A DNA stretch of 64,000 bases. Origin: Escherichia coli. Its GTDB lineage: Bacteria > Pseudomonadota > Gammaproteobacteria > Enterobacterales > Enterobacteriaceae. The stretch lies in the NCBI RefSeq assembly GCF_003334815.1, contig NZ_QOWO01000016.1; one strand, given 5' to 3'. Numbering within the stretch: position 1 is the stretch's first letter; the number at the start of each line of letters is the position of its first letter. The notes beneath the pieces are model-generated. The model was not told where the DNA came from. It did no database searches and worked only from the letters and a program-made list of their open reading frames with translations. The translations under genes were made by a program, and so were the position numbers. This document shows positions 19,308 to 24,218 of the stretch, one piece after another.

Positions 19308-20381
19308 GTGGGGCAGCGAATACCTGTAACGCTTGGTAATATTGCGCCGTTGTCGCTAAGGCCGTTCCAGCCTGGACGAATAGCTCTGGTGTGCGAAGGC
19401 GGCGGACAGCGTGGAATTTTCACGGCTGGCGTGCTGGATGAGTTTATGCGCGCGCAGTTTAATCCTTTCGATCTTTATCTCGGCACATCTGCCGGGGCGC
19501 AGAACCTCTCGGCGTTTATCTGCAATCAGCCCGGTTACGCGCGCAAAGTCATCATGCGCTATACCACAAAACGCGAATTTTTCGATCCATTGCGCTTTGT
19601 CCGTGGAGGAAATCTTATCGATCTCGACTGGCTGGTGGAGGCCACTGCAAGCCAGATGCCGTTGCAAATGGATACCGCCGCGCGGTTGTTTGACAGCGGC
19701 AAATCGTTTTATATGTGCGCCTGTCGTCAGGATGACTACGCGCCGAATTACTTTTTACCAACCAAACAAAACTGGCTGGATGTGATTCGCGCCTCCAGTG
19801 CGATACCTGGCTTTTATCGTAGCGGAGTGTCGCTGGAAGGCATTAACTACCTGGATGGCGGGATCAGTGATGCGATTCCGGTTAAAGAGGCGGCAAGGCA
19901 GGGTGCTAAAACGTTGGTCGTCATTCGCACTGTGCCGTCACAAATGTACTACACGCCGCAGTGGTTCAAACGCATGGAACGCTGGCTGGGTGACAGTAGC
20001 CTGCAGCCGCTGGTCAATCTGGTGCAGCATCATGAAACCAGCTATCGTGACATTCAGCAATTTATTGAGAAACCACCGGGCAAGCTGCGGATATTCGAAA
20101 TTTATCCACCGAAGCCATTACATAGTATCGCGCTTGGCAGTCGGATTCCGGCGCTGCGTGAAGACTATAAACTTGGGCGTTTATGCGGTCGTTATTTCCT
20201 CGCCACGGTTGGCAAGCTATTAACTGAAAAAGCGCCGCTTACCCGCCATCTGGTGCCAGTGGTGACGCCGGAATCGATTGTCATTCCGCCTGCGCCAGTC
20301 GCCAACGATACGCTGGTTGCCGAAGTGATTGACGCTCCGCAGGCGAACGACCCGACATTTAACAATGAGGATCTGGCTTGA
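19308..20381 (+). CDS. yjjU: patatin-like phospholipase family protein
   Basis: GGGQRG and GTSAG patatin motifs; GTG start as in K-12. Confidence 0.9.
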   Translation: MGQRIPVTLGNIAPLSLRPFQPGRIALVCEGGGQRGIFTAGVLDEFMRAQFNPFDLYLGTSAGAQNLSAFICNQPGYARKVIMRYTTKREFFDPLRFVRGGNLIDLDWLVEATASQMPLQMDTAARLFDSGKSFYMCACRQDDYAPNYFLPTKQNWLDVIRASSAIPGFYRSGVSLEGINYLDGGISDAIPVKEAARQGAKTLVVIRTVPSQMYYTPQWFKRMERWLGDSSLQPLVNLVQHHETSYRDIQQFIEKPPGKLRIFEIYPPKPLHSIALGSRIPALREDYKLGRLCGRYFLATVGKLLTEKAPLTRHLVPVVTPESIVIPPAPVANDTLVAEVIDAPQANDPTFNNEDLA

Positions 20382-21164: not shown

Positions 21165-21575
21165 CCCTTCGTAGGCAGCATCCGGCAGTCGGCGCATAAT
21201 GCCTGATGCGACGCTTGTCGCGTCTTATCATGCCTACAGGTTTGTGCCGAACCGTAGGCCGGATAAGGCGTTCACGCCGCATCCGGCAGTTGGCGCACAA
21301 TGCCTGATGCGACGCTTGACGCGTCTTATCATGCCTACAAGTCTGTGCCGAACCGTAGGCCGGATAAGGCGTTCAGGCCGCATCCGGCAGTTGGCGCACA
21401 ATGCCTGATGCGACGCTGACGCGTCTTATCATGCCTACAAGTCTGTGCCGAACCGTAGGCCGGATAAGGCGTTCACGCCGCATCCGGCAGTCGGCGCATA
21501 ATGCCTGATGCGACGCTTGTCGCGTCTTATCATGCCTACAAGTCTGTGCCGAACCGTAGGCCGTATCCGGCATGT
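21165..21575. repeat. REP/BIME cluster, about four tandem ~95-bp units
   Basis: Repeated gccggataaggcgttcacgccgcatccggca and gcctgatgcgacgct...gcgtcttatcatgcctaca modules. Confidence 0.85.
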
Positions 21576-22438
21576 CACAAATAGAGCGCCGGAAATATCA
21601 ACCGGCTCACCCCGCGCACCTTTAACGCATCAGCCAACGGCTCAACGTCTTCCGGCGTGGCGCTCGCCCAGCTTTGCGCCTCGCCATACACGCCGTGGGC
21701 ATGAAACGCATTCAGGCGAACCGGAACATCGCCAAGTCTCTTGATAAACGTCGCCAGCTCATCGATGTGATGCAAATAATCCACCTGGTCTGGAATTACC
21801 AGCAAACGCAGTTCCGCCAGCTTACCGCGCTCTGCCAGCAAACAGATGCTGCGCTTAATCTGCTGATTATCGCGTCCGGTTAATTGCTGATGACATTCGC
21901 TCCCCCACGCTTTGAGATCGAGCATTGCGCCGTCGCACACCGGGAGTAATTTTTCCCAGCCGGTTTCGCTCAACATACCGTTACTGTCCACCAGGCAGGT
22001 GAGGTGGCGCAGTTGCGGATCGTTTTTGATAGCAGTAAACAGCGCCACTACAAACGGCAGTTGGGTCGTGGCTTCGCCGCCGCTTACCGTTATCCCTTCA
22101 ATAAACAGCACCGCTTTGCGGACATGGCTAAGCACTTCGTCCACGCTCATGGATTGCGCCATTGGCGTGGCATGTTGCGGACACATCTTCAGGCAGGTAT
22201 CACACTGCTCGCAGACCACAGCGTTCCACAGCACTTTGCCGTCAACAATCTGCAACGCCTGATGCGGACACTGTGGCACGCACTCTCCGCAATCATTGCA
22301 GCGTCCCATCGTCCACGGATTGTGACAGTTTTTGCAGCGCAGATTGCAGCCCTGCAAAAACAGAGCCAGACGACTGCCTGGCCCGTCAACGCAGGAGAAG
22401 GGGATAATCTTACTGACTAAAGCGCATCTGCTGTTCAT
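21575..22438 (-). CDS. yjjW: glycyl-radical enzyme activating protein (radical SAM)
   Basis: Cys clusters CKNCHNP and [12 protein letters not shown]; matches K-12 YjjW. Confidence 0.9.
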
Positions 22439-23960
22439 GGCTTATCACGCGCGGCTGGCGTTCCAGAATACGAGTGTTGCGTGCGGCTTCTTCGCCCAGC
22501 CAGGTGGTGTTGGTGCGTGAACCTTCGGCGCGATATTTTTCTAAGTCCGACAAACGTACCATATAACCGGTAACGCGAACCAGATCGTTACCGCTGACAT
22601 TGGCGGTAAATTCACGCATTCCGGCTTTAAAGGCACCGAGGCAAAGCTGTACCAGTGCCTGCGGGTTACGTTTGATGGTTTCGTCGAGCGTCAGAATGTC
22701 GCTGATGCCGGAATAATAATAAGCATGATGCGGGGCGACAGTTTGCAGATGGGTGATCGGATCTGGCTCATCGCCATACGGCAAACGCGCGCCCGGCGTG
22801 GTGCCAATATCGGAACTGATCCCCGACTGTGCGTGTAACATGGCGCGTTTTTGCCAGCCATATTTCACGGGGGTATTGGCGACAAACTCCGCCAGTTGCG
22901 CGCTGATGCGATAACCCACTTCATTTGCGGCGGCTTCTTTACCGTAGCGCGCGGCAATCCCTTCTTTCTCACACAGCAAGTTAACCGCTTCCGCCAGCCC
23001 ATACATGCCAAACATTGGCACAAAACGTTCAGGGTTAATCAGCCCTTCTTTCACCAGGAAGCTATTCTCAAAGAAGTGTGATTGTTGATAGAGGAATTCA
23101 CACCGCGCATCGATGATGGCGATCTGCTGCTGGCAGTAGTGCGGTAGAGTGCGCGTAAAGAAGTCATCCAGCGATTCGCTGCGCTCGGCAATGGCTTTCA
23201 GGTTAAGGCGTACCAGCGTGCTGCCACCACCCGCCAGCGGCAGTGAGTTGTAACAGCTCACAATCCCGTAGCCCCCTTTTGTGAAAATTTTATCATGCAC
23301 CGGACCGTTGGCGATGTGCGGTTTGCTACATTCACAGATGTTCTTCGCCACTTCCAGCAGCAGGTCATCAGGGGTGATTTCAGGATCGTAGATAAAGGTC
23401 AGGTTCGGTGAAACCTGCTTCAACGCTGCGTCTGCACGTAAGATCGCGCGGGTAATGGGCGAATCAGACGGGCCGATATTGGCGTGCATAAAGGCGTCTG
23501 GCAGGGTTCTGTCGAGGTAACGCCAGAAACGTTTTATTCGAACATCGATCTCGTCTTGTGTTAGAATTCTAACATACGGTTGCAACAACGCATCCAGTTG
23601 CCCCAGGTAGACCGGCATCGATGTGACCGACGGTACGTGGTGGTAAAGAATGGTCAGCAGAGAGAGTGCGTCATCAAGATCTTTCGCGCCTTCCAGCTCC
23701 AGCCATTCGGAACCGTTCGCCAGAAAACGGGCGTAATCGGGTAAGACATAGCGCGGTTTGTACGGCGCATGACCTTCAAACATATCGCAGATTACACCTT
23801 CATCCAGCGCGCGGCGGGCTTCGGCAGGCAGCTGTGGGTAAGGCAGATTGTTTTCTGCTTCCAGTGCCAGAAAATGGCGCTTCTGCTCCGGGCTAAGCAC
23901 TGGGCTGGTGACAATTTGCTGGCAACGTTGTTGCAGTGCATTTTCATGAGAAGTGGACAT
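22410..23960 (-). CDS. yjjI: putative glycine radical enzyme YjjI
   Basis: 516 aa from [11 protein letters not shown]..., matches K-12 YjjI; the ORF-track N-terminal extension is not used. Confidence 0.9.
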
Positions 23961-24218
23961 CTTCTGTTCCTTTTTATGCCGAAGGTGATGCGCCATTGTA
24001 AGAAGTTTCGTGATGTTCACTTTGATCCTGATGCGTTTGCCACCACTGACGCATTCATTTGAAAGTGAATTATTTGAACCAGATCGCATTACAGTAATGC
24101 AATTTTGTAAGTAGATTTCCTTAATTGTGATGTATATCGAAGTGTGTTGCGGAGTCGATGTTAGAATACTAACAAACTCGCAAGGTGAATTTTATTGGCG
24201 ACAAGCCAGGAGAATGAA

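Follow-up and report, generated by a model that had tools for sequence, protein, structure and literature searches.

The window, by which we mean the whole stretch of 64,000 nucleotides that was analysed, derives from the E. coli chromosome, and it contains two overlapping genes on its minus strand. yjjI (positions 22410..23960) codes for a YjjI-family glycyl radical enzyme (GRE) of 516 aa, and yjjW (positions 21575..22438) codes for a radical-SAM activase of 287 aa. Both appear in the list of open reading frames (ORFs), and their coordinates match those that RefSeq gives for a strain with 100% identity, in which the products are named 'YjjI family glycine radical enzyme' and 'YjjW family glycine radical enzyme activase'. 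According to RefSeq, the neighbours of the pair are yjjU-yjjV on one side and, on the other, the divergent deoCABD operon. An earlier note on this DNA had recognised the genes as yjjI and yjjW, and RefSeq, NCBIfam and Pfam all agree with this identification; the span given there, 21575-23960, is exact, and its end coordinate is the RefSeq start of yjjI. As the note had also stated, the pair is not novel: it is already known and correctly annotated in RefSeq, and in this sense the window holds nothing new.

In the ORF list the yjjI frame is open upstream as far as position 24089. The ATG at 23960 is backed as the start codon by RefSeq and by the N-termini of 22 diverse homologues, all 22 of which start within a few residues of this Met, and it is preceded by AGGAA. 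At the other end of the gene, the stop codon TAA (22412-22410) lies downstream of the yjjW ATG (22438-22436), so that the two genes share exactly 29 nt on the minus strand (22410..22438), out of frame, where about 29 bp had been noted before. This arrangement is well conserved. In 82 of 85 loci with both genes placed, the activase gene lies directly downstream of yjjI and overlaps it (by 29 nt in 54 loci, 26 nt in 23 and 4 nt in 5), the other 3 loci showing a gap. No Shine-Dalgarno-like sequence is present in the 16 nt preceding the yjjW ATG (CGCGTGATAAGCCATG). From the conserved out-of-frame overlap and the lack of an obvious Shine-Dalgarno sequence we infer that the translation of yjjW depends on ribosomes reading yjjI. 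The geometry of the overlap thus points to an activase synthesis that is tied to the translation of yjjI and held at a low level.

YjjI matches the TIGR04040 model with 785 bits (cut-off 498.3) over residues 11-504, and YjjW matches TIGR04041 with 396.6 bits (cut-off 250.2). These family matches are far beyond chance. Both models are typed 'hypoth_equivalog' in NCBIfam, which denotes a family of unknown function, and a literature search that included full texts retrieved neither a biochemical characterisation nor a substrate of YjjI or YjjW, in agreement with the earlier note, which had called the substrate undefined. In Pfam, PF11230 is the sole family assigned to YjjI (1.4e-219). The Gly_radical (PF01228) and PFL-like (PF02901) models of Pfam gave no match to YjjI, and its NRDD model reached an i-Evalue of 0.63 only. 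The placement of YjjI in the GRE superfamily therefore rests on profile-profile similarity, structural similarity and two short motifs.

The YjjI family comprises 539 clusters at 50% identity among 1.84 billion representatives, and it was found in at least 593 of about 100,000 species genomes. The best 80 loci of a search across genome contigs all belong to the Enterobacterales. The overall distribution is patchy and includes, besides this order, Vibrio, Photobacterium, Shewanella, Psychromonas, Moritella and Ferrimonas, as well as Actinomycetota (Ilumatobacteraceae), Oligoflexia and an archaeal contig that carries eIF-1A, NMD3 and RIO1.

The first of the two short motifs is the C-terminal RVxG[FWY] motif of glycyl radical enzymes, which is present in YjjI as R462-V-T-G465-Y (codons at 22563..22577, minus strand). 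The second is a Cys loop, S235-C236-Y237-N238 (codons at 23247..23258, minus strand), which contains the predicted thiyl-radical cysteine. In an alignment of 22 diverse homologues, down to 29% identity, the invariant residues include C236 (within V-S-C-Y-N), R462 and G465, as well as D123, D150, E305 and R392. At least 90% conservation was observed for R70, Y71, H159, N186, K213, N218, S235, Y237, N238, R251, H376, Q378 and D384. YjjI has cysteines at positions 13, 58, 209, 211, 236, 276, 287, 330 and 440, the last of these being the only one within the final 180 residues. Apart from C236, no conserved cysteine was found in the alignments of 22 and 49 sequences, and C236 is the sole column that is invariant throughout the 49-sequence set. 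Taken together, the aligned homologues reach down to 28% identity.

A single-sequence search of the PDB with YjjI returned nothing meaningful, and solved GREs were linked to YjjI only by profile and fold searches. The AF2 model of YjjI, which was built from the family alignment and is confident (pLDDT 91.7, pTM 0.91), predicts the ten-stranded alpha/beta barrel that GREs share with ribonucleotide reductases (RNRs). Foldseek related this model to NrdD (E 2e-17, TMq 0.75), in agreement with a separate fold search in which the PFL-type GREs followed with PflD at 27.9, IslA at 26.9, CutC at 26.3 and PFL at 25.6. The invariant motifs, the predicted barrel, the profile homology to PFL described below and the adjoining activase gene are in line with the designation as a glycyl-radical enzyme and its activase that the pair had received in the earlier note. 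Based on motifs and model, YjjI thus truly belongs to the glycyl-radical/RNR barrel superfamily, as a minimal member that is shorter than the PFL-type enzymes by about 250 residues, and it may represent a third, minimal branch that is structurally placed between class III RNR and the PFL-type enzymes.

Judged from sequence profiles, PFL is the clearer link. hmmsearch with the YjjI family profile retrieved PFL chains at an E-value of 1e-3, and hhalign aligned YjjI with E. coli PflB over 390 columns (94.6% probability, E 6.5e-8). This alignment pairs S235-C236 with C418-C419, R251 with R435 and G465 with G734, so that the Cys loop, the pyruvate-binding R435 and the Gly loop (RVSGY in PFL, RVTGY in YjjI) all have counterparts. 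In addition, PflB/PflA is an FNR-activated two-gene module that, like yjjI-yjjW, has no further dedicated partner. The profile link could be taken to mean that YjjI is a PFL-like 2-oxoacid formate-lyase, the more so since R251 aligns with R435, an Arg that binds the carboxylate and lies on the strand following the Cys loop. However, PFL C418, the carrier of the acyl intermediate, is replaced by the near-invariant Ser235, and the alignment spans PFL residues 247-751 only, leaving the R176 region of PFL without a counterpart. YjjI thus has Ser-Cys where PflB has Cys-Cys, and with 516 aa compared to 760 aa it lacks the N-terminal third of PFL. PflA is devoid of the two extra ferredoxin-type cluster motifs that YjjW carries. 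No FocA-like formate channel is encoded near yjjI in any of the contexts examined. We consider a formate-lyase activity highly improbable.

The other relative to be weighed is NrdD, which hhalign linked to YjjI with 71% probability, placing C236 on C384 of the E. coli enzyme. This raises the view of YjjI as a second anaerobic ribonucleotide reductase, NrdD-like but minimal, or as some other nucleotide or deoxyribose reductase. In this alignment, however, the second active-site cysteine of NrdD (C175 in E. coli, C79 in T4) falls in a gap of YjjI, where YjjI has R70-Y71, and C236 is the only cysteine conserved in the family. The ATP cone and the C-terminal Zn-Cys4 site are missing as well, the identity between the two proteins is only 14-17%, and the NRDD model of Pfam barely registers YjjI, as mentioned above. 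Furthermore, NrdD is served by an NrdG-type activase of 154 aa, whereas YjjW is of the long PflA/PflC type with a ferredoxin insert and scores 47 bits against TIGR02491, the NrdG-type model, for which the cut-off is 126. The adjacency to deo is lost in Proteus, Providencia and all more distant lineages. Lastly, nrdD mutants are unable to grow under strict anaerobiosis, and YjjI therefore does not substitute for NrdD. Altogether, a reductase of this kind appears very unlikely.

The activase YjjW contains the radical-SAM [4Fe-4S] motif C31-x3-C35-x2-C38 (22325..22348, minus strand), which aligns with the cluster motif of PflA, followed by a ferredoxin-like insert with two CX2CX2CX3C motifs (C47-C57 and C76-C86; 22181..22300, minus strand). 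Pfam recognises Radical_SAM (5e-12) and Fer4 dicluster domains (Fer4_9/Fer4_7) in the protein, and these motifs and domains account for both kinds of Cys cluster that the earlier note had seen in the activase. The closest solved relative of YjjW is PflA (E 9e-18), and the next-best NCBIfam matches are to activases that serve hydroxyproline dehydratase, sulfopropanediol dehydratase and choline TMA-lyase. Both CX2CX2CX3C motifs are kept in the YjjW homologues of Enterobacterales, Vibrio and Shewanella. No ferredoxin motifs were found in the activases of about 250 aa from the Actinomycetota lineage and from locus L089, and the archaeal activase, also of about 250 aa, gave no ferredoxin-domain match in Pfam. 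Hence not every activase of the family carries the auxiliary clusters.

A two-cluster ferredoxin insert is typical of the activases of non-PFL GREs. GRE eliminases with activases of this two-auxiliary-cluster type are represented by CutC/CutD, glycerol dehydratase, HypD, IslA and the E. coli pairs PflD/PflC and YbiW/YbiY, and 1,2-eliminases dominate among the newly characterised GREs. It is conceivable that YjjI is a 1,2-eliminase, i.e. a dehydratase or C-X lyase, with a polar metabolite that bears a phosphate or carboxylate group as its substrate. Such a reading is a narrower version of the explanation as a GRE-activase pair and does not compete with it. Yet the dehydratases and lyases of this class are marked by a Glu two residues past the catalytic Cys, and YjjI, with S235-C236-Y-N238, has no Glu at this position. 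The known eliminases are also about 250-300 residues longer than YjjI, which forms a Pfam/TIGRFAM family of its own outside PF02901 and PF01228, and some activases of the YjjI family do not have the ferredoxin insert. An eliminase function is consequently rather doubtful in our view.

Gene order offers little help in naming a substrate. The order deoBAC / yjjI-yjjW / yjjV-yjjU is kept in Enterobacteriaceae, Hafnia and Edwardsiella. In Proteus and Providencia yjjIW is located elsewhere, away from deo, and the adjacency is missing in all more distant lineages as well. Across 12 contexts outside the Enterobacterales, which include Actinomycetota, Ferrimonas, Vibrio, Shewanella and an archaeon, the activase gene was the only neighbour that recurred wherever downstream sequence sufficed, and it was always located immediately 3' of yjjI on the same strand. 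The radical-SAM activase overlapping yjjI in the window is thus a dedicated one. An inference of the YjjI substrate from the gene neighbourhood failed, since no pathway partner recurred in these 12 contexts, and neither a substrate-specific transporter nor downstream pathway genes were found beside yjjI in the contexts examined.

One neighbour is worth mentioning separately. In Vibrio campbellii, Shewanella piezotolerans and a third gammaproteobacterium, a LysR-type gene lies convergently just past the activase gene. The three LysR proteins are orthologous, with pairwise identities of 47-58%, and the remaining flanking genes differ among these loci of marine gammaproteobacteria. No named NCBIfam equivalog matched the LysR protein, which provides a lead toward an effector or the substrate of YjjI. 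Nitroreductase-family genes were seen near yjjI in two loci, and we treat these as chance occurrences.

Several published data sets bear on the expression of the pair. An FNR ChIP study reported a peak upstream of yjjI, with direct activation by FNR and raised anaerobic expression (PMC3688515), and a study on the HU regulon lists both yjjI and yjjW as FNR-activated (PMC2634741). In Yersinia intermedia, anaerobic induction was 4.3-fold for yjjI and 2.1-fold for yjjW (PMC3792023), and the YjjI protein has been detected by proteomics (PMC6561319). The divergent control region between yjjI and deoC (23961..24218) includes a DeoR operator and two CRP-like sites, which our motif scan of this region placed at 24126-24141 and 24073-24088. 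The former of these corresponds to a motif that CRP ChIP-seq had placed between yjjI and deoC (PMC4287617). In the motif scan upstream of yjjI, the only FNR-like matches had 2-3 mismatches and coincided with the deoP2 CRP sites; NarL heptamers were absent from this region, and no convincing sigma-70 promoter was recognised there. A co-expression study has grouped yjjI with narG and proposed a role in 'nitrogen metabolism' (PMC3228777), which is the sole suggestion of a function that we came across in the literature. We do not adopt a role in nitrogen assimilation, because this proposal rests only on co-expression with FNR- and nitrate-regulated genes.

Given that neither a phenotype nor an activity was found in the literature, one might take yjjI-yjjW for a relic that is decaying or no longer functional in E. 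coli. The state of the locus speaks against this view. Megablast searches of 5,426 complete E. coli genomes, in which presence was defined as a match covering at least 80% of the 2.8-kb query, found the yjjI-yjjW stretch intact in 5423 of them, with 100% identity in several strains. Moreover, protein identity ranges from 65 to 99% across the Enterobacterales, with invariant catalytic motifs, and the FNR regulation and the detected YjjI protein equally argue against decay. We therefore regard a relic as extremely improbable. Indeed, the two genes carry the motifs by which a GRE and its activase are defined, the enzyme has the predicted barrel, and the pair shows strict co-occurrence and an anaerobic, FNR-dependent expression. 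It is thus very probable that yjjI-yjjW represents a functional and self-contained GRE-activase pair that is expressed anaerobically.

From family knowledge and the motifs, the working of such a pair can be sketched as follows. FNR turns on the transcription of yjjI-yjjW when oxygen is absent. YjjW would bind a [4Fe-4S] cluster on C31, C35 and C38, along with two auxiliary clusters on the ferredoxin-like insert, and would cleave S-adenosylmethionine reductively. The resulting 5'-deoxyadenosyl radical would then take a hydrogen from G465 of YjjI, leaving a stable glycyl radical, which would be passed on to C236, a residue in the barrel centre that forms the tip of the finger loop, and the C236 thiyl radical would finally take a hydrogen atom from the substrate. 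No report of a glycyl radical on YjjI, whether as an EPR doublet or as O2-dependent cleavage, or of any activity was found in the literature that we searched.

With regard to the substrate, the lack of a conserved pathway partner, together with the conservation of R70, R392 and R251, the last of which aligns with PFL R435, suggests a common and probably anionic metabolite. Residue conservation and the lack of gene context would fit a cytoplasmic compound of this kind. YjjI does not have the auxiliary catalytic residue of PFL, of class III RNR or of the GCxE eliminases, and its chemistry should therefore differ from that of all three. For the same reason, YjjI could perform a radical reaction of a kind not yet described for GREs. 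Any one chemistry that might be named for YjjI has a rather low likelihood of being correct. The fuller proposal that YjjI is a third minimal GRE branch, which carries out a new radical reaction on a common metabolite and whose expression or substrate is tied to deo, is a tentative one.

The 6-phosphates of 1,5-anhydroglucitol and 1,5-anhydromannitol were assigned as the substrates of YbiW and PflD (PMC12441222); the structures 8yjn and 8yjo are among the fold-search matches of YjjI. With YbiW and PflD recently assigned, YjjI appears to be the one E. coli GRE still left without a substrate, as far as we could find in the literature. The list of E. coli GREs in a 2025 paper omits YjjI. The yjjI-yjjW pair is core to E. 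coli, is controlled by FNR, and occurs patchily in facultative and strict anaerobes, including archaea. Identification of the YjjI reaction would close a gap in what is known of anaerobic metabolism in E. coli, the best-studied bacterium, and it could add a new reaction type to the GREs.

Finally, parts of the regulatory region of the divergent deo operon are located within the yjjI coding sequence. A search for DeoR operators, with a chance expectation of 0.12 matches per window, identified O1 as a perfect match (TGTTAGAATTCTAACA) at 23559-23574, overlapping yjjI codons 129-134, and O2 with one mismatch at 24159-24174 in the yjjI-deoC region, 600 bp from O1. A copy with four mismatches, OE, lies at 23280-23295, exactly 279 bp upstream of O1, so that O1 and OE are both inside yjjI. 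These spacings agree with the classical O1/O2/OE spacings, that between O1 and O2 to within 1 bp. If deoP1 sits at O1, where the classical work places it, transcripts from deoP1 would have to run antisense across the first 400 nt or so of yjjI and across its promoter, and a regulatory coupling of yjjI to these antisense transcripts is possible. The 5' coding region of enteric yjjI could double as the DeoR/CRP-controlled deoP1 region, which could tie yjjI expression to nucleoside or deoxyribose catabolism, and perhaps the substrate of YjjI is linked to these pathways too. O1 is absent from the yjjI genes of Proteus and Providencia, in which deo is not adjacent. With 0-2 mismatches and an unchanged codon position, it is kept in E. 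albertii, Citrobacter, Salmonella, Lelliottia, Enterobacter, Kosakonia, Kluyvera, Atlantibacter, Trabulsiella, Pluralibacter, Hafnia and Edwardsiella. The DeoR operator within yjjI is thus conserved only where deo adjoins.

The divergent deo operon has all three of its DeoR operators in the window, and two of them are located within the yjjI coding sequence itself, namely OE (23280-23295) and O1 (23559-23574, codons 129-134). The third operator, O2 (24159-24174), is intergenic and lies outside yjjI, with spacings of 279 bp between OE and O1 and 600 bp between O1 and O2. In a comparison of O1 conservation, the nucleotide sequence of this operator was found to be kept in all loci where deoCABD is located next to yjjI, and O1 was missing from the yjjI genes of Proteus and Providencia. 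If the promoter deoP1 is positioned at O1, as in the classical description of the operon, its transcription would be antisense to the 5' end of yjjI.

Ahead of its annotated ATG, yjjI has a further 43 codons that no stop interrupts (23961-24089, minus strand), and this extension includes ATGs in the same frame at position 24089 and at about 23995. A start of yjjI within the extension is supported neither by RefSeq nor by the N-termini of homologues. One NCBI-sourced database entry, P0004, is a protein of 574 aa in which PF11230 (YjjI) is combined with PF01791 (DeoC/LacD aldolase) and which is encoded on a contig of 2.9 kb. Because yjjI and deoC are divergent, this combination is probably an artefact of assembly or gene calling rather than a real fusion.

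Codons 24-29 of yjjW contain a sigma-54 promoter-like element, CTGGCTCTGTTTTTGCA (22354-22370, minus strand), which is intragenic and oriented in the sense direction relative to yjjW. The element matches exactly the MG1655 site IS57, an intragenic sigma-54 ChIP site (PMC4591121). A predicted terminator-like hairpin overlaps the same element.

The intergenic region between the convergent genes yjjV and yjjW is filled by a REP/BIME-type repeat array (about 21170-21570), three copies of which match the Rfam family RF02564 (naRNA4/CssrE) on the plus strand (21257-21335, 21358-21435 and 21458-21536) with scores of 72-77 bits, above the gathering score of this family. Within Escherichia the array differs in length from locus to locus, with yjjW and yjjV lying between about 110 and 1100 bp apart. 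Across the array from yjjW lie yjjU and yjjV, which overlap by 4 nt (20378-20381; yjjU ends at 20381 and yjjV starts at 20378). This overlap suggests that they form a coupled pair encoding a patatin-like phospholipase and a TatD-like hydrolase.

Outside Enterobacterales, in Vibrio campbellii, Shewanella piezotolerans and a third gammaproteobacterium, the activase gene is directly followed by a convergent gene for an orthologous LysR-family regulator (L086 10466-11362, L097 9465-10601 and L098 9441-10451, all on the minus strand). These proteins share pairwise identities of 47-58%, and the remaining neighbours are different at each locus. No named NCBIfam equivalog was matched by this regulator, the nearest models being BsrA, YidZ and LeuO, all far under their cut-offs.

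Lastly, YjjW-type activases of only about 250 aa are encoded in an Actinomycetota lineage (L002 9557-10309), at a second locus (L089 2785-3528) and in an archaeon (L093 8621-9364). The CX2CX2CX3C motif is absent from the first two, and the archaeal activase has no Pfam match to a ferredoxin domain. Therefore, the auxiliary clusters are dispensable in part of the YjjW activase family.
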